From a virus (lineage: Duplodnaviria > Caudoviricetes), in IMG/VR virus record IMGVR_UViG_3300021471_000001, positions 609-64,608 of that record: a stretch of DNA of 64,000 nucleotides; one strand, 5' to 3'. Below, piece by piece: positions 35,436 through 50,703 of the stretch. Under the pieces are notes generated by a model, which had not been told where the DNA came from, did no database searches, and worked only from the letters and a program-made list of their open reading frames with translations. Position 1 is the first letter of the stretch. Every line of letters starts with the position of its first letter. Made by a program: the position numbers and the translations under genes.

Positions 35436-35930
35436 CTAATTACTAAACTTATGTCCACATTTTGGACATATTATGGTGTTTTCTTTGCTATCAAATGCAA
35501 AATTGTCCTCTTTTGTATTTATTATTTCGTCTAATTCGTTGTCTGAAAAAGGTAACTCTTCACGTATATCAACTTCATATTCTTTCTCAAGTTCAACTAA
35601 CAAGTCCTTTAACACATCATTGTCAGCATAACCCTTTGTCTCATTAAGTCTTATGCTTAAGCGTTTTGCCTCTTTGTCACTTAGAGTCCCAAGATTGTTT
35701 ATACTTATTTCCTTCATACCAAGTTCTATACAAGCCTTCCATCTATGCTCTCCGTCTATTATCTCATAGAAACCGTCTTTCTCTCTTACAACTATTGGTA
35801 CAACAAATCCATCTTCACTTATGCTTTGTTTTTCCTTCTCAAACATAAAGCTATTTTGTATGTTATAATTCCAATCATTCGGCTTTACTTTATCAATGCT
35901 TATTTTCTGTTCATTAACCTTTATTTTCAT
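35436..35930 (-). CDS. ParB-like N-terminal domain protein with C-terminal Zn ribbon
   Basis: KPNDWNYN, GFVVPIVVR, EIIDGEHRWKA, CPKCG. Confidence 0.85.
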   Translation of the reverse strand: MKIKVNEQKISIDKVKPNDWNYNIQNSFMFEKEKQSISEDGFVVPIVVREKDGFYEIIDGEHRWKACIELGMKEISINNLGTLSDKEAKRLSIRLNETKGYADNDVLKDLLVELEKEYEVDIREELPFSDNELDEIINTKEDNFAFDSKENTIICPKCGHKFSN

Positions 35931-37043: not shown

Positions 37044-37730
37044 TTACACCTTTGTATTTTTTTTCACCTCGTTATACGAATATTCTAAAGATTTCTCATA
37101 ATTTACTATTATACCTCTTCTTACACGTTTAAGGCGTTTTATAAAACCTTTCCTTTCTAATGCTTTAAGTATAAAGTGTGCCTGACTATCCCTCTTGAAG
37201 CCGAAATTCTCTTTTATCTCCATCAAAAGTGGAGCCTCACCGTATCTTTTCAAATATCCAACTATATAATCATAAACTCTTAGCTGATTTTTAGTCAATA
37301 CTTTTCTCATTTTACCTTCTCGAAGCACAGAATAATATTTACAACGTACCGATCTAACCGTTCTACCAAGCATTAAAGACACACCCACAATTCCATCTTT
37401 AGGAATGTGTTCTAGCATATAACTAATCTCACTTTCACCCCACTTTTTATTCTTTTTCCTTTTCCTTTTCTCAGCAATCGTTTTAATAATACTATGCTTT
37501 GCTTTTATCAAGTACTTCTTATGTTTTCCATTTGCTATCTCCCAAGCTAACCTCTTACAGGCCTCTTCAACATATATTTTGTCCTTTAATAGCTTTCTAT
37601 AGCGCCTTACATCTGACCAATCTAAAATTTTTCTTCTTTTCAAAATCACCTCCAAAAAATCTAGGTATGCCATTATTCTAATTTCGCTGAGAAATGCGAA
37701 ATTGTACACAAGATTTAATTTTATTTTCAT
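37044..37730 (-). CDS. Transcription regulator with C-terminal LexA-type winged HTH (no peptidase domain)
   Basis: LTKNQLRVYDYI...GEAPLLMEIKENFGF...LKALERKGFIKR. Confidence 0.7.
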   Translation of the reverse strand: MKIKLNLVYNFAFLSEIRIMAYLDFLEVILKRRKILDWSDVRRYRKLLKDKIYVEEACKRLAWEIANGKHKKYLIKAKHSIIKTIAEKRKRKKNKKWGESEISYMLEHIPKDGIVGVSLMLGRTVRSVRCKYYSVLREGKMRKVLTKNQLRVYDYIVGYLKRYGEAPLLMEIKENFGFKRDSQAHFILKALERKGFIKRLKRVRRGIIVNYEKSLEYSYNEVKKNTKV

Positions 37731-37925: not shown

Positions 37926-38702
37926 TTATGACATAGTATTACATATACCTACACACTCAAACAATGGATACTCATCCTTATAGTAAAAGCCGCTCAACTC
38001 TCCTTTTTCAATCTTAATCCTAAAATCTTCTAAAGTTATATCTTTAAGAAAGTGTACATCCTTAGAAAACTTTTTCCTAAATCGCCTTTCTACTCTTTCT
38101 CTATCTGCATATACATCAGGTAGCTTATCATATAGTCTTTTCCATTGTCTTTTACCTTGCCTAACACAACCACCTGAACAATTGTTATGGCTAAATCCTA
38201 ACTTATATAATATTGGCTCTTCAATCCCAGAATGCTTTATAAAATCATCTATTTCCATAGAATTAATACCATGCTCTATAAGAGGGAATCTTATTCGACA
38301 CATTTTTTTCTTTTTAGCTGCTATTACTTGATATACAGATACAATTCTTTGTGCTCTATGCTCTTCATCTTTACTAATGCCAAAAATTATTGTATCACCA
38401 TTCTTATAAAACTTTTGAAGTCTTTCTGCTTTAAGTATACGAGAGCAAAATGGCATACGATCGCAAGCAAGAGCCTTTTGATCAAAAAAAAGCTGTTCAG
38501 GACTTCTTCCATCTGTATCCTTTGTTACTTCCTTTTTTAAAAACCTACTCAGATCATCTAAAAAACGGTATAGGTCTGGATGTTCCCACTTGGTGTCATT
38601 AAAATATAACACAATATCGTCCTTATCAAAGTTTCTCATTGCCCAATTAGCACACCATGCACTAGCTTTTCCACCACTTAAAGCTACTATAATTCTTCCC
38701 AT
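37926..38702 (-). CDS. PAPS reductase/PP-loop family protein (phage type)
   Basis: VALSGGKAS PP-loop, DTKWEHPDLYRFL, CSRILK, GFSHNNCSGGCV. Confidence 0.8.
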   Translation of the reverse strand: MGRIIVALSGGKASAWCANWAMRNFDKDDIVLYFNDTKWEHPDLYRFLDDLSRFLKKEVTKDTDGRSPEQLFFDQKALACDRMPFCSRILKAERLQKFYKNGDTIIFGISKDEEHRAQRIVSVYQVIAAKKKKMCRIRFPLIEHGINSMEIDDFIKHSGIEEPILYKLGFSHNNCSGGCVRQGKRQWKRLYDKLPDVYADRERVERRFRKKFSKDVHFLKDITLEDFRIKIEKGELSGFYYKDEYPLFECVGICNTMS

Positions 38703-41253: not shown

Positions 41254-41949
41254 TTAAAAATATCTAAGTTTCCAACTTAACACATTGTCTATTTCTGGAC
41301 AACCATAAGCTAAAAACTCTGGGTCAAAAAGCGTTGTGAAACGTACTTTATCCCATCCCACGACAGGTGAATACTTGTCGTAGTAACTAATATAAGGAAT
41401 GCCGTTTTCTACTATGTAGCCCCACACATCAAGCCACGTCAAATCTCGGATAGGAAAAACTTCTTTCATTTCCGTTAAAGAACGACCTGAAGTTATTCTC
41501 AACCGTCTTTTTATGCTTTCTTCTTTTCTCAAACCGACAAAACAACAATCATATCCTTCTTTTATCAATCTAGGAATTAATCCCTTGATTAAATCCATTC
41601 CTATCACGTTTGTAGCTTTTCGTTTTAATTTATCGTACAACTCGGAAGTCTCTACACGTAAGTTTTCTACGCCTATCTTTTTTGCATTTTCCATTATTTC
41701 ATTGAAATACACTCTCGGCATATAATACTTTCCGTAATCCCAATGTAAAACCATTATGTCTTTTTGCTGTTCTATAATCATGTGTAACATAACGGTTGAG
41801 TCCTTTCCTCCAGAGAAAGCGACGTAAGACTTGTTATATTTCTTTAAGCTCTTTTTCACAATATCTTTAGCATTATCTATTCTCTCTCTATACTCTTCTG
41901 TTGTACTATGTAAAGCAAAAGTTTCTCTTATTCTTTCTTCCATAACCAT
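41254..41949 (-). CDS. cysH: CysH-like PAPS reductase family protein associated with type IV-B
   Basis: YVAFSGGKDSTV, FVGLRKEESIKRR, PIRDLTWLDVWGYI; last gene of the csf operon. Confidence 0.85.
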   Translation of the reverse strand: MVMEERIRETFALHSTTEEYRERIDNAKDIVKKSLKKYNKSYVAFSGGKDSTVMLHMIIEQQKDIMVLHWDYGKYYMPRVYFNEIMENAKKIGVENLRVETSELYDKLKRKATNVIGMDLIKGLIPRLIKEGYDCCFVGLRKEESIKRRLRITSGRSLTEMKEVFPIRDLTWLDVWGYIVENGIPYISYYDKYSPVVGWDKVRFTTLFDPEFLAYGCPEIDNVLSWKLRYF

Positions 41950-42587
41950 TAACTCACTTTAAATTTTGCACCTTCCTTATTAAGCTTACTAATAGCATGT
42001 GCTAAGCTATTTTTATTTATATCTACACCATAAAAACACTTACATTGATTATAACAAGCTAAAGCAGTTAACCCTCTTCCCATACACATGTCTACTATAG
42101 GTGATAATATTTCATATCCTATAGCATGATACGGCGTCATACTGTCATCCAAACCACTAAAATCCTTTTTACAAAGGTCATAGGCACCTCTGAGCAGATA
42201 AGCTTTTCTTTCTTTATAGTAAGTAATTTCCCAAACATCTACTATTGGAAAAAGCTTCCCCATTTCAAATTCAAAGACATCTACATATTGTTTTCCTATT
42301 TCCAAATAACAAACTTGAGCATTCGTTTCATTAATTCTTTCAAACAAAGACATATAAAAATCTGCATAATCTTTTATCTTATTTTCTTTACATGCCTTAT
42401 TAATAAAATAGTTTGTCAAAGCTTTATTCCAGGGGGGATCACAATAAACCATCTCCGCTTTTTTACAGTAAGTCGGATAATCATGTCTTATATCACATAC
42501 ACTTATCATTGAATCTCCCTTTAAGTTGCTATCATAATAGTGCCATATCTCTCCCTCCTTGATTGGGAACTGATACCAAGCACTCAT
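41949..42587 (-). CDS. DNA methyltransferase-like protein (amino-MTase type)
   Basis: VYCDPPW (motif IV) precedes VDMCMGRGLT (motif I) and FYGVDIN; start at 42587 gives an ATGA overlap with the upstream gene. Confidence 0.7.
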   Translation of the reverse strand: MSAWYQFPIKEGEIWHYYDSNLKGDSMISVCDIRHDYPTYCKKAEMVYCDPPWNKALTNYFINKACKENKIKDYADFYMSLFERINETNAQVCYLEIGKQYVDVFEFEMGKLFPIVDVWEITYYKERKAYLLRGAYDLCKKDFSGLDDSMTPYHAIGYEILSPIVDMCMGRGLTALACYNQCKCFYGVDINKNSLAHAISKLNKEGAKFKVS

Positions 42588-43237
42588 CTTTTTCTTTTTT
42601 TTCTTATTCTTTTTCTCTTCCATATCTTTACACTCCTTTCTTTTAGAAAATCTCTCTTTAATTTTTCTAAGTCAGTAACGCCAAAAGTCCTTGACTGTCT
42701 TTTAGAAGAACGTCTAGGATTGATTGAAGACCTTCCTACCCTATGATCTACCAAATTAGGTACAACAATCCAATATCTCATTTTCTTCTTACGCAAAACC
42801 CAAGCAACAAATAAATCTGTCCCCGTCGGATTCTTACCACTATCATATACTTTCCAGCTTTCATAATATTCTAACAGTTCTTTTGACAATCCCATAGGCA
42901 AATAAAAACACACGCTACACATAAAAGAACCGCCTGAACAATATCTACTGCCTATCAATATATCATCTTTCCTTCTTGAAAAGAATTGTATAACTTCATT
43001 TGGTCTTTTATCTATTTCTACACTAACTTTATCCAAAAAATTATCACACAATATAACATCGTCTTCCAAATGCAAGCATGGATATGACTTTGCAAGCTTC
43101 AACGCTTCTAAAAACGTGTCCATAGCATTCTTTGTTTTATCATAACAGTATATTGTGTCTTCTGGTAAATGATTCCGCAAATATTCTATGTACGGTTCTC
43201 TTTTCTTAACACATTTAACAATTATTTTATAATTCAA
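42584..43237 (-). CDS. Glycosyltransferase-like protein (GT-A fold)
   Basis: CLHLEDDVILC acidic metal-binding motif and VPNLVDHR late His motif. Confidence 0.6.
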   Translation of the reverse strand: MNYKIIVKCVKKREPYIEYLRNHLPEDTIYCYDKTKNAMDTFLEALKLAKSYPCLHLEDDVILCDNFLDKVSVEIDKRPNEVIQFFSRRKDDILIGSRYCSGGSFMCSVCFYLPMGLSKELLEYYESWKVYDSGKNPTGTDLFVAWVLRKKKMRYWIVVPNLVDHRVGRSSINPRRSSKRQSRTFGVTDLEKLKRDFLKERSVKIWKRKRIRKKRKR

Positions 43238-43967
43238 TTTCTATCTCCTCTTTTGGAATGCAACAAATATCCACATTTTCAGGAGACCAGTACGGTGGCT
43301 TCCAAGCTACATTCACAACTCTTTTACATTTCTTTAAATATCGTCTCGGAATAGGTCTCATCGCCTTGCCATCTTTGATTAAACTATAATCTTTATCTGT
43401 ACTCTTAATCTCAAAACCACTTACAGCACCATAACCAACACGACAATTATCTCCCAAACCCACAATCAAAGAACACAAATACTCCATCGCCTTTCTATCC
43501 GCATTAACATAAAAGCTTACTGTCCTAGTCGGTATATATATATGTCTCATCATATAATCCCTAAAGTGACCACTACCTTTACTTATTTTTCTATGTCCTT
43601 TTATCCATCTATCCTCAAACTTCTTGTACAACACTTCCATTTTTAAGCTATCAGTATCGAAAAAAGAAATCGAACTATGGTATAAATCACCATGAGAAAG
43701 CTTTATTGGACTTTCTGGTAAATCATTTTTATTTATCACTCGAAATAAATTAAACTTACGTGGAAGCAAATAATAATCTTTCCCTAAATACTTCAATAGA
43801 AGCAAATGTCCAATTAGTCCATCGAAGTTTAACCAAGCATGATTCAATGCTATTGGTGAGGACATATAAAAAATTATCTCCATAGGAGTATATTTCATAG
43901 GTTTTGCATTCCGATTAATCGCTTCTACATACTTTTTTGCAAAATATTTTATTTCATCAATTATCAT
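43227..43967 (-). CDS. csf3: Type IV CRISPR Cas5-like subunit Csf3
   Basis: MSSPIAL...LNFDGLI, GSGHFRDY, G-rich loop LGDNCRVGYGAV, MRPIP, WKPPYW. Confidence 0.85.
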   Translation of the reverse strand: MIIDEIKYFAKKYVEAINRNAKPMKYTPMEIIFYMSSPIALNHAWLNFDGLIGHLLLLKYLGKDYYLLPRKFNLFRVINKNDLPESPIKLSHGDLYHSSISFFDTDSLKMEVLYKKFEDRWIKGHRKISKGSGHFRDYMMRHIYIPTRTVSFYVNADRKAMEYLCSLIVGLGDNCRVGYGAVSGFEIKSTDKDYSLIKDGKAMRPIPRRYLKKCKRVVNVAWKPPYWSPENVDICCIPKEEIEIEL

Positions 43968-44806
43968 TTTCCCTTTCCTAACTTTGCAATTAATTCAATT
44001 AATAAATCTTTGTTACTTTCTACAAAGCTAATATACGCCTTACTATCGCTAATCTGTGGTCTATAGTCAAAAGACACTTCGCCATCACCTGTTGAACTTT
44101 TTCCACCAACAAATGGTGACTTTCTGAATAGCTCAATCACTCTTCCAAAACACGACTTTTCTAATTCCGTTGCCCACTCGAGTGAGAACCAGTGATAAAA
44201 CTTTGTTCCTATACCAAAGCACTCATAGTCAACTTTCATCTGTTGAGCCTGCTCATCCTTCTCTCTATCGGCTTTTAAGTCGTCCTTACGTGTATGAAAG
44301 CTTTCGTCAGTAAATTCTTTCACGTTTTTATTTACTCTTTCGTCTTGTTTATATTGTTCAGGTAGGTATATATAATATTCTTTGCAGATTGGAAAAGCAT
44401 GTCCGACTTTCAAAATTCCTGGTATCATTTGATTTCCTATTGCACAGCCAAAAACGGCAAGTGGTATAATCAAATCTCTTATTTCAGTACGCATTTTCAG
44501 GTCTATGGTTGCGTAATTATCCTCTGTACTCTCTAATACACCACCTGTGAAGAATGTATGATATAGCTTTACTGGAAGTTTATCAACCTCAAATCCAAGC
44601 AGTTCTAGAAAGTCTTTCATAATAAGACGTCTTAGCTTCCCCCTTATAGCATTGCCATGCAAGTATGGAAATGGTATTTCACCCATTCCATCAACGTAAA
44701 GGTAGATTGTCCTTAACACTGGTGTTGAACCAGTCTTTTCATTACCACCGTGATGTATTGGAGACTTCGCTAGAAGCCATCCTTCGTACTTTTGAATTAT
44801 TTTCAT
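43964..44806 (-). CDS. csf2: Type IV CRISPR Cas7-like backbone Csf2
   Basis: AKSPIHHG, PYLHGNAIRGKLRR, FTGGVL, LAVFGCAIGNQMIPGILKVG, VGGKSSTGDGEV. Confidence 0.92.
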   Translation of the reverse strand: MKIIQKYEGWLLAKSPIHHGGNEKTGSTPVLRTIYLYVDGMGEIPFPYLHGNAIRGKLRRLIMKDFLELLGFEVDKLPVKLYHTFFTGGVLESTEDNYATIDLKMRTEIRDLIIPLAVFGCAIGNQMIPGILKVGHAFPICKEYYIYLPEQYKQDERVNKNVKEFTDESFHTRKDDLKADREKDEQAQQMKVDYECFGIGTKFYHWFSLEWATELEKSCFGRVIELFRKSPFVGGKSSTGDGEVSFDYRPQISDSKAYISFVESNKDLLIELIAKLGKGK

Positions 44807-45213
44807 TCTTTTACCTCCTCTGTCTTTTTTTGTTCATACATATCTTGTATGTCTATATCAAATGTAGGTTTACTTTTCCTACTACTTTTAATCTCTTTTC
44901 CCTTTATGATAGCTCTTACACAAAAGGGAATGTGTTCAGAATAAAGCCTAGTAAGTACATAGACCTCATCCTTTCTTAAATCTTCGACTAATCCTATACT
45001 TTCACCTGGTAGGGTCTGCAAACCAAAGTAATTACATAACTTACTTGCAAAAGCATAGATAGTCCCTCGTCTAGAAGCCGATCTAACACGGTGATTAAAT
45101 ATATCGTGCGGATTCTTAGACGTTTTCATACTATGCCAATTTATCTTACTGTATACCACAGCGAGTAAATCGACAAGCGTATCTTCTAAAACCTTTTTCC
45201 TATTTGGAGACAT
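44803..45213 (-). CDS. cas11: Type IV-B small subunit (Cas11/Csf4-like)
   Basis: 136-aa helical protein between csf1 and csf2, the canonical IV-B position. Confidence 0.7.
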   Translation of the reverse strand: MSPNRKKVLEDTLVDLLAVVYSKINWHSMKTSKNPHDIFNHRVRSASRRGTIYAFASKLCNYFGLQTLPGESIGLVEDLRKDEVYVLTRLYSEHIPFCVRAIIKGKEIKSSRKSKPTFDIDIQDMYEQKKTEEVKE

Positions 45214-45808
45214 AAGCTAACAACTCCCATAATGGATTTCTAATAAATGGTTTGGCACTTTCTATTAAGAAATACCAACCCTTTTCCATAGCTAGCCTTG
45301 AGTTTTTCATTGTTAATTCACCTCTAATTATTTCTGACTTTGAGACTTTATTCTCACGAAGCCTACATATTAGGTTGTGATAAGTCTTCACGTCACTTTG
45401 ATTAACTAAAAAACTCCCGAGCCAGTCTGTGGAAACATAAAAATGAACGTTATCAAAGTTAATTCTTTGTAAGGAATCGAGCCACCCTTGTTTTTGGTAG
45501 CTCTTTGTAACATATAAAAAGAATGGAACAGGTTTTTCTCTCAATAAGGTCTCCAAAACCTCTTCTCTCTTTAAAAATACAACACTTTCCTCAGTAGCAA
45601 ACCACGATTTCTTACGATAGTTCTGATTCCTAAAGAAATGATAACAATATTCACAAGTTACACCGCCATTTTTCAAGTATGAGTATCCTGTAAAACTGTT
45701 TGAGAATGGCAAATCAAAACCATTATTCGTCTCTTTACCACATACACAACAATAGCCAGATTTATCTCCTATTTCTGGACTTCTAATAACCAATTCTGTA
45801 ACTATCAT
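45200..45808 (-). CDS. csf1: Type IV large subunit Csf1 (Cas8-like)
   Basis: CCVCG...FSNSFTGYSYL...VTCEYC Zn finger; PFFLYVTKSYQKQGW. Confidence 0.8.
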   Translation of the reverse strand: MIVTELVIRSPEIGDKSGYCCVCGKETNNGFDLPFSNSFTGYSYLKNGGVTCEYCYHFFRNQNYRKKSWFATEESVVFLKREEVLETLLREKPVPFFLYVTKSYQKQGWLDSLQRINFDNVHFYVSTDWLGSFLVNQSDVKTYHNLICRLRENKVSKSEIIRGELTMKNSRLAMEKGWYFLIESAKPFIRNPLWELLAYVSK

Positions 45809-46473
45809 CTTGACAACCTCTTTCTATACTGATAAAACAACTTTTCGATATTTAAGTACCTAGTTCTAACTACTTCACCTTTATAGCTTCTACTAAGCAT
45901 AATCAACTTCTTAGCAAAGTCAAGAGTCAGCTCATACTCTATCCTACGTGGAAAACCACGCCGATCATACTCGATAACATAGCGTTTATAATCCCTTCCT
46001 TCCTTTGCATACAAATTTTGTTCTATGTTTTTTCGCTTCCATTTAGCATAATTACCAACGTCAAGTCCCAAAAACCTGTATAGCTCTGAGCTCATGATGG
46101 TTTTCTTTAACTCAATTTTTTCTGTAAATCTAGGTAAGCTCGTTTTCATAAAGCTTTTTCCCTTTTCTGCGTCTTTATACTCTTTTCTAGATTCTTCTCT
46201 ATCCTTTATATATCCCACTACAATTTCGTATCCTCTTTTGGTAAATACTCTTAGACGATTGACTTGTTCTACGTTATTATATAGGTCTTTGATTTGAGAC
46301 CTGAATACTTTTACATTATCGCCTGAAAGCAAATATGTATCTTTGTTTTCCTTCAAGTTTCGTTTCAAGAGCTTATTTGCAACTTGTTGAATTCTCTTTT
46401 CTGTTACACCAAGCTCTTTTGCCATGTCTAAAACAGTAAATACTTGTTTACCATTAAAATATCTTTTTGTCAT
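45805..46473 (-). CDS. ORF6N + AntA-domain antirepressor-like protein
   Basis: N-terminal VFTVLDMAKELG...TYLLSG...VFTKRG; C-terminal SSELYRFLG...YELTLDFAKKLIM; start 46473 has a GGAGG RBS. Confidence 0.75.
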   Translation of the reverse strand: MTKRYFNGKQVFTVLDMAKELGVTEKRIQQVANKLLKRNLKENKDTYLLSGDNVKVFRSQIKDLYNNVEQVNRLRVFTKRGYEIVVGYIKDREESRKEYKDAEKGKSFMKTSLPRFTEKIELKKTIMSSELYRFLGLDVGNYAKWKRKNIEQNLYAKEGRDYKRYVIEYDRRGFPRRIEYELTLDFAKKLIMLSRSYKGEVVRTRYLNIEKLFYQYRKRLSR

Positions 46474-46489
46474 AGCTTTAAACCTCCAT

Positions 46490-47461
46490 TTATTTAAGTT
46501 CAATAAAGTTTTTACTATCATTACACTTCTCACTTATCCTTCTAAACATTGAAGTAAGAACATCACTCCATGAATTGTTTATGTCATAAATCATTTTCTG
46601 TAAATCATAGATTGATTTGTTCGATGTAATAATGAACTGAAACCGCTCTCCACGTTTATAAATCGCATCAAACACAGCCAACATCTCTTTTAAGTTAAAC
46701 TCTGTGAACTTCACTTTATCAAAGTCATCTATAAGAATATAGTAATATGATTCTGTCGGTGGAACAGTAATTTCCCATATTTTCAAATGTGTAAATGCTT
46801 TATAATCCCTTTCTAATCCATATTTTACAAACTCTTTTATCAGTTTATTACATGTGAAATTGTTAAAAGAGAATATTAAGTCTTGGTCTATGTAGTAGGA
46901 AAGTATCGCATACATGGAGTATGTTTTGCCAACGGCAGGTCTGCCATATAGATAAAAGGATTGTGGCTTTTCATAATTTTTAACCATATTAAAAAGCCTT
47001 TTCTGACAGCCATTCTTATGACTTTCAAAATTAGCATCTTTATAAATGCCAAACTTGTACTTCATCTTAGCTAACATATTTTTCCTGTAATCTTTGCTTT
47101 TCTCTTTGTATCGTCTATCTATCTCACACTGTCTGCAATAATCCCAAATCAGAACGTCGTTATCGAATTCTCTCGGCTTTCCGATTGTATCTTTTAAAGC
47201 ATCTGCACTTATTTTAAAGAATGACGAAATCCACTCAATCTTACTAGCAAAGATTTTTGAACCGCAGACCTGACATAATTTAACGCTATCTCTAAGATTA
47301 CCTTCAGTTACATATTTATTTATCGCTTCCATACGTTCTTTAACACTACTTGGAATTATATCTTTCTTTTCATTAGCTTTAATTTGTTCTAATGGTATCT
47401 CAAACTTTGTTTTGACAGCCTTTTTTATTGGTTTGTCAAATGGATTTTCTTTGCTATTCAT
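46490..47461 (-). CDS. DnaC/IstB-like ATPase (helicase loader)
   Basis: Walker A LYGRPAVGKT, Walker B LIDDF, IITSN, N-terminal CxxC pairs. Confidence 0.8.
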   Translation of the reverse strand: MNSKENPFDKPIKKAVKTKFEIPLEQIKANEKKDIIPSSVKERMEAINKYVTEGNLRDSVKLCQVCGSKIFASKIEWISSFFKISADALKDTIGKPREFDNDVLIWDYCRQCEIDRRYKEKSKDYRKNMLAKMKYKFGIYKDANFESHKNGCQKRLFNMVKNYEKPQSFYLYGRPAVGKTYSMYAILSYYIDQDLIFSFNNFTCNKLIKEFVKYGLERDYKAFTHLKIWEITVPPTESYYYILIDDFDKVKFTEFNLKEMLAVFDAIYKRGERFQFIITSNKSIYDLQKMIYDINNSWSDVLTSMFRRISEKCNDSKNFIELK

Positions 47462-47464
47462 AAC

Positions 47465-47848
47465 TTACTCCTTTTGATTTTCTTCTTTGATAATCTCATG
47501 TGGATATATGGCATGTTCTCTTGTCTCTTTGGCAATGTCTTCAACATAAGCGTTTGCTAAATTATTCCAAATGTCTACACTGTTTGTACATATAATATTA
47601 AGTCTATAACCTTCACCGTCACTCTGAAAAAACAACACATCTTTATTCTTAATTTCGCTTTCATCAAGAGTTTTGCCATTCTTTAAACTATTAACAAGTT
47701 CTCCCAATACTTTATATAGCTTAAAGAGAGCCCTCTCATTAAGTACTATAAAGGAATCTGTATGCCAATATTGTTGTGAATAAATGTGACATGCGGCTAT
47801 AGTTTTATAGTGCTTTTTAAGTATTTCTCTTACTTCCTTTTTATCCAT
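47465..47848 (-). CDS. Hypothetical protein
   Basis: Coupled ORF; FFQSDGEGY motif. Confidence 0.6.
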   Translation of the reverse strand: MDKKEVREILKKHYKTIAACHIYSQQYWHTDSFIVLNERALFKLYKVLGELVNSLKNGKTLDESEIKNKDVLFFQSDGEGYRLNIICTNSVDIWNNLANAYVEDIAKETREHAIYPHEIIKEENQKE

Positions 47849-48173
47849 CTTTTTCCCCCTCTCGGTTTTTTAAAACGTGCTCTAAGATAATATTAAACAA
47901 TTTAGATTGTAGATTTAATTCGTTCAGTAATGTGCTTCCAAAGTCATCATGAAAACGCTCATTGAGAGATAGTTTACTGGTGATCATGATGAATAGCATG
48001 GTAATAGCTCCCTCATAAAAGCTTTTGTCTTTATCAAAACTGAACTTGCTTTTTAAAATACTACATCCATCTAAGCTTAAGTCACCGCTATCAAGATCAC
48101 TACTAAAATCTTTTAAAGCTTTTGTAGGAATAATTACATCCCAAAATTTTAATTCTTTTTCTTTATTACTCAT
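47841..48173 (-). CDS. Paralogous family member
   Basis: FSFDKDKSFYEGA...HVLKNR. Confidence 0.65.
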   Translation of the reverse strand: MSNKEKELKFWDVIIPTKALKDFSSDLDSGDLSLDGCSILKSKFSFDKDKSFYEGAITMLFIMITSKLSLNERFHDDFGSTLLNELNLQSKLFNIILEHVLKNREGEKDG

Positions 48174-48528
48174 ATTTTTCCTCCTTTCTGTTCTTCAAAA
48201 CATATTCTGAGATAGATTTAAACAAATTCGTTTCTAAGTTTGATATATGTAAAAGTATACTTCCTAAATCATCTGTTTTTTCAGTATAGTACATGTGAGC
48301 CATCATAATCGTATATAAAACCGCTACTGCCCCCTCATAAAAACTATCACTTTCATCAAAGCTCAACCGCTTTTCTACAAAACTGATACTATTTGGGCCA
48401 TCACTAATATCCACATCATAAAACTTTTTTATGATTTTTGTACTAACCGAGATGCCCTCAAGTAAAAATTCCAACTCACTTTCAGTAATACATCTATCCC
48501 AAAATAATTCCTTCTCTTTATTATTCAT
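48166..48528 (-). CDS. Paralogous family member
   Basis: LSFDESDSFYEGA...YVLKNR. Confidence 0.65.
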   Translation of the reverse strand: MNNKEKELFWDRCITESELEFLLEGISVSTKIIKKFYDVDISDGPNSISFVEKRLSFDESDSFYEGAVAVLYTIMMAHMYYTEKTDDLGSILLHISNLETNLFKSISEYVLKNRKEEKYE

Positions 48529-48614
48529 ATTTTTACCTCTCTTTTTTTTCTAAAATATGCTTCAACAAAATGTTATATGGTTTATTATTTGTATGAAGCC
48601 TATATTGAAGCACT

Positions 48615-49307
48615 TTAATAATTCATCCTCATTTTCAAAACAAAGCTTGATACAATGTTAAAAATACTTGTAATAAATAAAATTAAACTTTCTAAAACTT
48701 CTTCTTTCTTCTCGTAGGCAAAATTAAAACGATTATAAGCATCAAGCACAGCCGTCAAGGACGAAACAAAGCCATCATAAAAGTTTTCACCCTTATCAAA
48801 ATTAAAAAATTTTGCTAAATCTTTTTCATACATAGAAATATTTATATTAAAATGCTTAACACTTTTTCTAAAGCTTGGTATAATTTCTGATACAGTTATC
48901 AATTCACCATTACTAATAACCTTATCTATGTAATGTTCAGAATCATCTTTATTACAACCACTTTTATCATTTCTTGTTTTTAAAACATGCTTTAATACTG
49001 CATTATATAAACCAGACATAACCTCAAAAACCTGTGCAACAACAGTTTTATAGTCTTCAAATTTATTTAAAGCATTTGTCAAACATAAAAATACATGATG
49101 AACTGATGAAATAAAACCTTCATAGAAAATATCGTCCTTTTCGAAAAGCATAAATTCCCTAGAAATATGGTCTCTATTTACACTTATATCTGGAACGTAT
49201 GGGACCTTCTCTTTTGCAAGCTTTAATTCACTATTCAGAAGCTTAAAATCAAGTTCGGATAGCATTCTATCACTATTAAAAGCTTTAATCTCTCTTCTAT
49301 TACTCAT
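48615..49307 (-). CDS. Paralogous family member with two tandem domains
   Basis: FEKDDIFYEGF...HVLKTR and FDKGENFYDGF...FVLKMR. Confidence 0.65.
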   Translation of the reverse strand: MSNRREIKAFNSDRMLSELDFKLLNSELKLAKEKVPYVPDISVNRDHISREFMLFEKDDIFYEGFISSVHHVFLCLTNALNKFEDYKTVVAQVFEVMSGLYNAVLKHVLKTRNDKSGCNKDDSEHYIDKVISNGELITVSEIIPSFRKSVKHFNINISMYEKDLAKFFNFDKGENFYDGFVSSLTAVLDAYNRFNFAYEKKEEVLESLILFITSIFNIVSSFVLKMRMNY

Positions 49308-50703
49308 TTTCTTTTACTCCTTCATCATTATACTTATGTGGATAGTAATCTCTAAGACATTTCTCTTCCCATTCTTCATCTGTCATCAGACTAGGATCGG
49401 TCTTTCTCTTTTCTATATACTCTGCCTTTAAGTTAGAATATTTCCTTAGTAGTATAGAAGGAATTAATTCGTATTTATACCAATCTTTCTTCAGTGCAAA
49501 ATTGACAATCCTACGAAACAAATCTCTATCTTTTTCTATTCTAGCAATATAACGGAATTGTCCTATTTCAGATATTGTAAGAGAGCAATAGAAACCGTGC
49601 ACTTCTTTCCACTCTTCAAAATATATTTTCCTTAAGTCTTCTGAAAGCTTTTTTTCTAAACTTTTCTTACCTTTTCCATTTCTAGAAGGTTTAAGTACTT
49701 TACTTGCTTCTTCAAAAAGATATTCTGTACTAGTATTAACATTATCTTTACTTTGACTTACTTTTTCTATACTACTAGTACTAGAATCTATGTTATGGGA
49801 ACTAGTACCTAGAGTAGAGTCTATGTTAGAAGTACAAGTTGTACTAGATTCCTTAGTACTAGAGTCTTTGCTAGAAGAACTAGATTCTTTAGGTCTAGTT
49901 GTACTAGATTCTCTAGTAGATCTAGATCTACTAGAAGTACTAGAAGATTCATCAACTTTTTCTTTAGAAAAAGTTGATGGTTTTTCTTTATTTTTTTTTC
50001 TAGATCTTTCTTTATATTCTTTATTTCTAGTTTCTTTAGGATTCTCGAAATGCTTTTCAGAAAAGCTTTTTTGCGGTGTAACTTGTGTATTTTTTACACA
50101 AGTTATTAATCCTTTGTCAATCCCGTTTTCGAAGACATCGAGTTTGTTATCACTGTCTGGTTGCTGATTCCCAACTTGTGTATTTTTTACACAAGTTTTG
50201 TGTAAACTTTCCCCAAGTTGGCTTTTATCTTTGACACTGTCTTTAGAGTAATCTTGTTCCATTTTGTTGTTCTCTGATAAAGATTTTTCAGGTTGTGTAT
50301 TTTTTACACAAGTTGTTTCCTTGCTTTCAATTTCTTTTTTCGGAGTTGCAACGTCTATTTTGTTGTTGGAGACTTTATCTTCAACTTGTGTAATATTTAC
50401 ACAAGTTTGATTTCCTCTTTTCTCACTTGTGTAATATTTACACAAGTTTATTATACGCCCCTGTCCCTGTCTTGTTTTCACTTCTATTATACCTTTTCTT
50501 TTTAATTCAGAAAGACATTTTGTAATCGTCTTATTATTCAATCCAGTTTCAGAAATGAGTTTACAATTTGTTAATTTTGTTCCTCTTCTTTGAAAGCCAT
50601 TCGTATATCGAAATATTATGAAAAGTAGTTTCGTAGCATTTCCTGAAAGGTGAATTAAATCTTTTTTATCGATCAAATCATTATCAAACATAGTAAAGCC
50701 CAT
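49300..50703 (-). CDS. Phage replication initiator (lambda O-like organisation)
   Basis: N-terminal wHTH (LSGNATKLLFIIFRYTNGF...TGLNNKTITKCLSELKRKGII), iteron-encoded linker, upstream of a DnaC-like gene. Confidence 0.8.
   Translation of the reverse strand: MGFTMFDNDLIDKKDLIHLSGNATKLLFIIFRYTNGFQRRGTKLTNCKLISETGLNNKTITKCLSELKRKGIIEVKTRQGQGRIINLCKYYTSEKRGNQTCVNITQVEDKVSNNKIDVATPKKEIESKETTCVKNTQPEKSLSENNKMEQDYSKDSVKDKSQLGESLHKTCVKNTQVGNQQPDSDNKLDVFENGIDKGLITCVKNTQVTPQKSFSEKHFENPKETRNKEYKERSRKKNKEKPSTFSKEKVDESSSTSSRSRSTRESSTTRPKESSSSSKDSSTKESSTTCTSNIDSTLGTSSHNIDSSTSSIEKVSQSKDNVNTSTEYLFEEASKVLKPSRNGKGKKSLEKKLSEDLRKIYFEEWKEVHGFYCSLTISEIGQFRYIARIEKDRDLFRRIVNFALKKDWYKYELIPSILLRKYSNLKAEYIEKRKTDPSLMTDEEWEEKCLRDYYPHKYNDEGVKENE
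50080..50448. repeat. Five 25-bp palindromic iterons; putative replication origin
   Basis: AACTTGTGTA-N5-TACACAAGTT-type copies at 50080, 50173, 50290, 50383 and 50424. Confidence 0.85.

Follow-up and report, generated by a model that had tools for sequence, protein, structure and literature searches.

Why should a glycosyltransferase gene (GT) and a DNA-methyltransferase-like gene (MT) lie between csf3 and cysH in a type IV-B CRISPR-Cas operon? The question is raised by positions 41254 to 43237 of a 64,000-nucleotide sequence, hereafter the window, which is the whole stretch of DNA that was analyzed and corresponds to the viral record IMGVR_UViG_3300021471_000001 (64,608 bp, complete, with direct terminal repeats) minus 608 bases. 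They cover the distal half of a type IV-B operon without an array (csf1-cas11-csf2-csf3 ... cysH), carried by a complete phage genome. A sequence-only reading had suggested that the Csf ribonucleoprotein scaffolds or targets a modification machinery to which the two extra enzymes belong. The gene identities, folds, motifs, and gene orders described below, and their recurrence in other phages, led us to a different answer, whose probability we judge to be about even: GT and MT are tailoring enzymes of a nucleic-acid modification module that is centered on a 3′-phosphoadenosine 5′-phosphosulfate (PAPS) reductase-like enzyme and was inserted in the IV-B operon, and they are tied to this PP-loop enzyme, not to Csf.

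The sequence-only reading was right about the kinds of enzyme encoded. GT (42584..43237, 217 amino acids [aa]; this and all other genes given here are on the minus strand, which carries nearly all genes of the window) matches phrog_854 “glucosyltransferase” at 3e-8, with no Pfam or NCBIfam match at an E value of ≤0.1 and no match to PDB sequences, either as a single sequence or as a profile. Its AlphaFold2 model, with a predicted local distance difference test score (pLDDT) of 94, has 49 PDB structure matches in Foldseek at an E value of ≤0.001, GT-A glycosyltransferases leading; mimivirus R655, POMGnT1, GnT-I, COLGALT1, STIV A197, and Fringe are among them, with E values down to 2e-6 and template modeling (TM) scores of about 0.5. 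The protein is thus a GT-A fold glycosyltransferase of the GT25/GT2-like kind. Its homologs form 103 clusters of ∼185 aa, of which some are called “GR25 family glycosyltransferase” by their source and one is fused to ParB_N. All 16 invariant residues of the family are kept, and in the EDD motif (residues 58 to 60), E58 and D60 are invariant in 24 relatives.

MT (41949..42623, 224 aa, with an alternative start at 42587) resembles the beta-class DNA methyltransferases of the N6A/N4C type. Its DPPW motif (residues 62 to 65) precedes the GxG motif (182 to 184), which is the beta-class order, and both motifs are invariant in 19 relatives. The match to PF01555 reaches 15.4 bits, under the curated cut-off of 26.7, and the match to DpnA is also weak. 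The fold is nevertheless PF01555-like, the Atlas model giving TM scores of 0.74 to 0.77 to PF01555 clusters, some of them ParB_N-fused. MT has 48 homologous clusters of ∼215 aa, 17 of which carry a precomputed PF01555 assignment, and it keeps all invariant residues of this family.

The third gene of the stretch encodes CasCysH (41254..41949, 231 aa), a PAPS-reductase-like PP-loop ATP pyrophosphatase that matches PF01507 at 7e-18. It is 49 to 53% identical to the cysH product adjoining csf3 in five related loci (L002-L006) and is their ortholog, which bears out the earlier view of it as the typical IV-B accessory. The AlphaFold2 model (pLDDT 90) has CysH (PDB 6vpu) as its best fold match, at 3.6e-8, and also matches other PP-loop enzymes. 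The SGGKDS motif is invariant. The C-terminal Cys is not: the window has Cys (in YGC), and the column holds C, A, G, S, or N in 18 relatives, so that CasCysH lacks the conserved C-terminal catalytic Cys by which a true CysH is recognized. Nor does it have the DUF3440 domain and adjacent ParB of IbrA-like enzymes, since it carries PF01507 only and no ParB gene adjoins it. A complex prediction for CasCysH with MT scored 0.00, giving no answer, and counts neither for nor against binding.

The gene overlaps reported earlier were recovered in the coordinates of the open reading frames (ORFs). csf3 ends at 43227 and GT starts with TTG at 43237, 7 nucleotides (nt) downstream of GGAG, which makes an overlap of 11 nt; the GT stop codon TGA (42586-42584) overlaps an ATG at 42587 in the arrangement ATGA; and a single base at 41949 belongs to both the MT stop codon and the cysH start codon (TAATG). 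However, the reading frame of MT is already open at an ATG at 42623, preceded by AAGGAG 9 nt upstream, and a start there would produce a 40-nt overlap with GT; the sequence is compatible with either start, 42623 or 42587. Upstream, overlaps of 4 nt (AntA gene/csf1), 14 nt (csf1/cas11), 4 nt (cas11/csf2), and 4 nt (csf2/csf3) follow one another, the DnaC-like gene overlaps the AntA gene, and the genes past cysH also abut or overlap. Between 37.5 and 48 kb, a search of the minus strand gave no terminator-like site. The overlaps are therefore genuine yet not particular to a csf3-GT-MT-cysH unit, because the entire leftward arm, including the AntA, DnaC-like, and post-cysH genes, is equally packed; the unbroken coupling that had been noted stands, and its restriction to this unit does not. 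The GT/MT overlap region (42584-42640) is A-rich, with a run of eight A, and encodes both a poly-Lys N terminus of MT and a Lys/Arg-rich C-terminal tail of GT, KRKRIRKKRKR, which is absent from 23 relatives.

Where GT and MT are usually found was determined from 80 viral loci of each family, in which six-frame ORFs were labeled by iterated profiles; the search patterns were short peptides, and the iterated MT profile may include other beta-class methylases. No Csf2 match lies within 8 kb in 76/80 loci of the GT family and 67/80 of the MT family (Csf2 is present in 4/80 and 13/80, respectively), an independence from csf genes that partly undercuts the idea of a Csf-directed machinery. A PAPS-reductase-like ORF, on the other hand, is nearby in 76 of the 80 loci in either family. 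Among 177 such ORFs pooled, 138 are long (360 to 450 aa) and 23 short (220 to 300 aa), and the four long PAPS reductases tested all combine PF01507 with DUF3440. ParB joins the long PAPS reductase in 133/135 csf-less and 44/47 csf-bearing loci. These pairs presumably resemble IbrB/IbrA, and one phage record annotates a long PAPS-reductase gene as “IbrA.” The module sits just before the terminase genes, and its variable genes encode MT, GT, GNAT, a class-I methyltransferase, and an SNF2 helicase, usually in the orders ParB-MT2-GT-(U171|GNAT|MT)-PAPS-ParB-TerS-TerL or SNF2-PAPS-ParB-MT. An overlapping GT-MT-PAPS cassette recurs in loci that have no csf genes (L015-L019, L030, L058, L067, and L074).

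These gene orders make GT and MT members of a phage module that is widespread and appears to function in the absence of Csf. Since they are found without csf genes, they are not integral parts of type IV-B, and their proposed chemistry could not depend on Csf. The window order GT-MT-CasCysH appears to copy the GT-MT-PAPS cassette, with CasCysH replacing the long enzyme. The possibility that Csf replaces ParB as the partner of the PAPS reductase was considered and rejected, as ParB is kept in the csf-bearing loci with the module at the frequency given above. Two further families are regular module members, U273 (L271:6496-7299 and relatives) in 18 loci and U171 (L076:651-1154) in 28 loci; neither family has a Pfam or PADLOC match.

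Isolated phages contain little of this. Of 50,697 isolated-phage records, 223 have a tblastn match to the long PAPS reductase, 2 to the GT family, 1 to Csf2, and none to the MT family, and blastn with the 4.5-kb locus of the window found no match in the same number of phage records. The lone isolated phage with a Csf2 match is Skermania phage SPI1 (KR011061; locus L001, 4980-7479), whose csf2-csf3-cysH-like genes are annotated as the hypothetical proteins Orf42-44. The window stretch itself was found in two DNA sequencing runs, one of which may be its source and the other of which has it in part, with no RNA run among those listed.

The converse view, from the type IV-B side, was obtained by Csf2-anchored scans, in which viral contigs were searched with three groups of profiles and genome contigs with one; together they gave 126 loci. 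The GT+MT pair between csf3 and cysH, a count of which had been named as a check, occurs in none of these 126 other loci. A long PAPS reductase, an MT, or a GT was found inside the operon or ≤3 kb from it in 43 of the 126, and inside it in 17. By scan, the three viral sets contributed 14 of 46 loci (4 inside the operon), 13 of 45 (7 inside), and 9 of 16 (2 inside), and the genome-contig set contributed 7 of 19 (4 inside). When 125 viral Csf2 loci, MT- and GT-anchored ones included, were pooled and deduplicated at 95% Csf2 identity, the corresponding figure was 24 of 74 clusters. The broader idea of a link between IV-B loci and modification genes thus gains support, in the form of interleaving, but not in the sense that GT and MT are integral to IV-B.

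Whole blocks of the module can stand between csf3 and CasCysH (SNF2-PAPS-ParB-MT, ParB-MT-U273-PAPS, or PAPS-GNAT-ParB). In L271 and L266 the module between csf3 and cysH forms one overlapping co-directional run with the csf genes, and in L286 an MT is placed between csf1 and cas11. On a Csf2 tree of 87 nonredundant rows, the 30 positives represent every major Csf2 clade and need at least 26 state changes, a number inflated by the scoring of truncated flanks as absences; on an MT tree of 80 rows, the 18 csf-linked rows need at least 13. Five of the nine rows in the window's Csf2 clade have an MT and/or a long PAPS reductase, at differing positions, four have no MT, GT, or long PAPS reductase, and GT is in no other locus of the clade. 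A search with Csf2 only gave five viral relatives at 55 to 63% identity, again none with GT, in three layouts: csf3 followed directly by cysH (L003 and L004), csf3-MT-cysH (L002), and csf3-cysH with an MT 2.5 kb on (L005 and L006). Because the window MT is sister to the MTs of L168 and L271, MT was probably inherited within the clade and GT added later.

Ten long IV-B viral records that lack a nearby long PAPS reductase were searched whole. CasCysH is the sole PF01507 match in nine of them, and the tenth has a second PF01507 match 41 kb away. Therefore, when an IV-B locus and a long PAPS reductase are both present, they sit together.

Under the reading that ties GT and MT to the PP-loop enzyme, the two would have entered the operon between csf3 and cysH as cargo genes, with CasCysH standing where the recurrent GT-MT-PAPS-reductase order has the long PAPS reductase, and one early leftward transcript would yield all seven genes. 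The PP-loop enzyme would adenylate a position of the substrate, spending ATP, and the methylase and the sugar transferase would then attach their groups. The Csf ribonucleoprotein would be linked through CasCysH only and would be dispensable for the chemistry of GT and MT. The substrate that these two share with the PP-loop enzyme would be nucleic acid, most likely phage DNA; we infer this substrate, the chemistry, and any physical contact between the proteins from the gene associations described above.

Several observations weigh against this reading. The phage has PAPS-reductase and ParB genes of its own 2.5 to 6 kb away. The second PAPS-reductase-like gene (37926..38702, 258 aa, SspD-like), 2.5 kb downstream of CasCysH, matches phrog_424 at 5e-40, PF01507 at 1.7e-11, and PADLOC SspD at 3.7e-24, with no DUF3440 match; the ParB-like gene (35436..35930; phrog_723, 1.4e-26; phrog_620, 6e-24) lies 2 kb from it, with a gene for a LexA DNA-binding domain (37044-37730) and small ORFs between. 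GT and MT could act with this pair and have no relation to CasCysH. In 83 of the 126 Csf2-anchored loci, none of the three families is nearby, and csf3-cysH adjacency is the rule among close relatives; CasCysH therefore does not need GT or MT to function. The region between recombination genes (RusA and HNH) and the terminase is occupied by IV-B loci as well as by the ParB/PAPS module, and a shared insertion hot spot may account for part of the adjacency. The GT-A fold does not indicate the acceptor, and all structural neighbors of GT act on proteins or glycans. Finally, the sample is biased, 9 of the 13 Csf2 profile seeds coming from loci first found through MT or GT, and contigs are often truncated, with ≥3 kb on both sides in 51/126 loci.

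Part of this evidence would be expected if GT and MT were independent cargo, MT being an orphan anti-restriction methylase and GT having another target, both brought to the locus by a hot spot and the tight packing of phage genes, with no tie to CasCysH or Csf. The overlaps do extend over the whole leftward arm to the unrelated AntA and DnaC-like genes, both families are csf-independent in most loci, the rest of the window's Csf2 clade has no GT, the proteins structurally nearest to GT are protein or glycan transferases, and the neighborhood of RusA, HNH, and terminase genes is common to IV-B loci and to ParB and methylase genes. A hot spot, however, does not explain why insertions fall inside the operon (at csf3-cysH or csf1-cas11) in 17/126 loci distributed over all major Csf2 clades. 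Also left unexplained are the recruitment of nonhomologous GT and MT genes to the same junction and the finding that, of 10 IV-B phages lacking an adjacent long PAPS reductase, 9 contain none whatsoever. We regard this explanation as somewhat unlikely.

The Csf ribonucleoprotein might instead bind RNA or DNA and scaffold or target CasCysH, MT, and GT, so that modification is RNA guided or RNA scaffolded and not global. That csf genes are repeatedly interleaved with the module in single overlapping runs, and that the operon is devoid of nuclease, helicase, and array, agrees with such a role, and the literature leaves room for it: in the accessible portions of these sources, one describes type IV-B as still unclear in function (PMC13676074, 2026), and another speculates that cysH, a “nearly invariant” neighbor, is connected with epigenetic or restriction-modification functions (10.1101/780106). 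The former also proposes that CasCysH AMPylates substrates or makes messengers. Yet GT, MT, and the ParB/PAPS module work without csf genes in the great majority of phages; the constant nucleic-acid-binding partner is ParB, not Csf, even in the csf-bearing module loci; and a guide source is missing, the record having no array and the window matching no Rfam family at gathering score. We consider Csf targeting quite unlikely. A broader proposal would have phage IV-B Csf complexes act as the nucleic-acid-binding arm of a modification pathway, in which CasCysH, a paralog of the ParB-partnered PAPS-reductase/DUF3440 enzymes, would adenylate RNA or DNA that the Csf filament holds or selects, MTs and GTs recruited independently on several occasions would finish the hypermodification, and the window would be the most compact form, with csf1-3, cas11, GT, MT, and CasCysH packed translationally as a single unit; this, too, is an unlikely proposition in our estimate.

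On its own, the window would be a curiosity, two cargo genes in one operon. In our biased sample, however, about a third of the phage-borne IV-B loci are interleaved with a module of ParB, PAPS reductase/DUF3440, and methylase (plus GT, GNAT, or SNF2), and the interleaving ties CasCysH to an enzyme family that resembles nucleic-acid modifiers. Compact natural operons, including that of the window, are open to gene-by-gene study. We found no description in the literature of IV-B loci interleaved with a ParB/DUF3440/MT/GT module, although the supplementary locus maps of 10.1101/780106 and 10.1101/270033 may show such neighbors, and no paper that establishes the function of the ParB + PAPS-reductase/DUF3440 module. 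To the extent of its accessible text, 10.1101/270033 reports an ADP-ribosyltransferase in some IV-B loci and names an N6-MTase in the legend of Figure 4; likewise, the available part of PMC10848311 places IV-B with a cysH-like gene in an archaeal virus, and that of PMC7937560 describes Csf proteins forming a filamentous ribonucleoprotein on RNA, known only for the Mycobacterium complex. Viral cysH genes, the DUF3440 clade included, are read as sulfur auxiliary metabolism in the accessible portion of a preprint (10.1101/2021.01.05.425418), and the present associations caution against reading viral “cysH” genes as sulfur-metabolism genes.

Three known kinds of system invite comparison with the GT-MT-CasCysH arrangement. 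The phage ParB + PAPS-reductase/DUF3440 pairs (IbrB/IbrA-like) are the normal home of the GT and MT families, and the window has its own ParB-like and phrog_424 genes; here, however, GT and MT adjoin the short CasCysH, without DUF3440, and csf genes instead of a ParB/PAPS pair. The phosphorothioation systems (DndC, SspD, and BrxP of BREX type 4) likewise use PAPS-reductase-like PP-loop enzymes to modify DNA, but neither a cysteine desulfurase nor a DndD/SspC-type ATPase is among the annotated neighbors here, and CasCysH has no conserved Cys. The likenesses are partial, with CasCysH matching BrxP at 9e-9 over about 50 residues and the long PAPS reductases matching DndC at 1e-7 to 5e-9. The weak likeness of the long PAPS reductases to DndC and BrxP and that of the second PAPS reductase to SspD (3.7e-24) fit a role on DNA and do not thereby establish the chemistry. 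Orphan beta-class N6A/N4C methyltransferases of phages share with MT the order DPPW then GxG, the PF01555-like fold, and ParB_N-fused structural neighbors, whereas MT is small (about 215 aa), stands alone, and matches PF01555 only below the cut-off.

The remainder of the operon is that of type IV-B: Csf1, Csf2, and Csf3, with a cas11-like gene flanked by csf1 and csf2 and a cysH-like gene that belongs to the same operon. csf1 (45200..45808), encoding the type IV Cas8-like protein with a CxxC zinc ribbon, matches PADLOC Csf1_0_IV at 3e-34 and TIGR03114 at 3e-5; the cas11-like small subunit (44803..45213) matches Cas11_0_IV at 4e-34 and has no Pfam match; csf2 (Cas7; 43964..44806) matches Csf2_0_IV at 2e-70 and phrog_22746 at 2e-23; and csf3 (Cas5; 43227..43967) matches Csf3_0_IV at 1.7e-52 and TIGR03116 at 6e-13. 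A Cas11 profile of 14 relatives finds Cas11c of PDB 11fs at 5.7e-4. A Csf2 profile of five relatives has PDB 7jhy “Csf2 (Cas7)” as its top match (1.6e-22), followed by type IV-C and IV-A Cas7. The 7jhy entry is, we assume, the type IV-B complex of the iScience 2021 paper. As in other type IV-B systems, csf1, cas11, csf2, csf3, and a cysH-like gene share one operon on a mobile carrier, with no array, Cas6, or DinG. CasCysH also keeps the PP-loop without a conserved C-terminal Cys, as PMC8175902 reports for CasCysH in its accessible portion, where the main text mentions neither a methyltransferase nor a glycosyltransferase. The window differs in that GT and MT separate csf3 from cysH, that the carrier is a complete tailed-phage genome and not an actinobacterial plasmid, and that the csf proteins match the curated TIGRFAM equivalogs (TIGR03114/5/6) solely below their cut-offs. 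With a GC-rich Csf2, tblastn against plasmids gave 12 actinobacterial and archaeal plasmids.

The csf3-cysH junction holds other genes elsewhere. A GT2-like gene is found there in two loci (L279:1520-2368, PF13641 above cut-off and no PDB sequence match; L198:6963-7718, weak), and a SpoU-like putative RNA methylase in two more (L194:11577-12044 and L203:6310-6714, both below the Pfam cut-off; the L194 ORF has a weak match, E value of 0.096, to a tRNA 2′-O-methyltransferase). These genes are unrelated to the GT and MT of the window. Cas6 genes stand between csf3 and the cysH-like gene at L213:11664-12314, L218:11847-12479, and L284:2681-3472, as does a Cas6e-like gene at L261:11184-11864; the loci are type IV-B-like and come from viruses and metagenome-assembled genomes, and IV-B is said to be usually without Cas6. 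In L088, the junction is filled by the module, which has a PD-(D/E)XK nuclease as its last gene downstream.

In the window, the genes upstream of csf1 are an AntA/ORF6N antirepressor-like gene (45805..46533; PF08346, 3e-12; PF10543, 8e-7) and, before it, a DnaC-like loader with a phrog_50 match, the first minus-strand gene of the region 47461-41254. The 64.6-kb record contains no array-like repeats, tandem or short-spaced direct, no csf4/DinG, and no Cas6 C-terminal domain (the models used did not include cas1/cas2 or RecD), and no tRNA was found in it. A CRISPR mini-array was considered and rejected. Just one family of short-spaced repeats exceeds two copies, a palindromic 25-mer (AACTTGTGTATTTTTTACACAAGTT with its variants). 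Its five copies, at 50080-50448 with spacings of 93, 117, 93, and 41, lie inside a replication-protein gene (ORF 49300-50703, minus strand, 467 aa) whose product repeats the peptide TCVKNTQ, and they resemble the iterons of an origin of replication located in its initiator gene. Between that gene and the DnaC-like gene, at 47841-49307, three adjoining ORFs (110, 120, and 230 aa) have in common a domain with the motif SFYEGA ... VLKNR, which is present twice in the longest, and, judged by eye, form a small paralogous family upstream of the DnaC-like gene.

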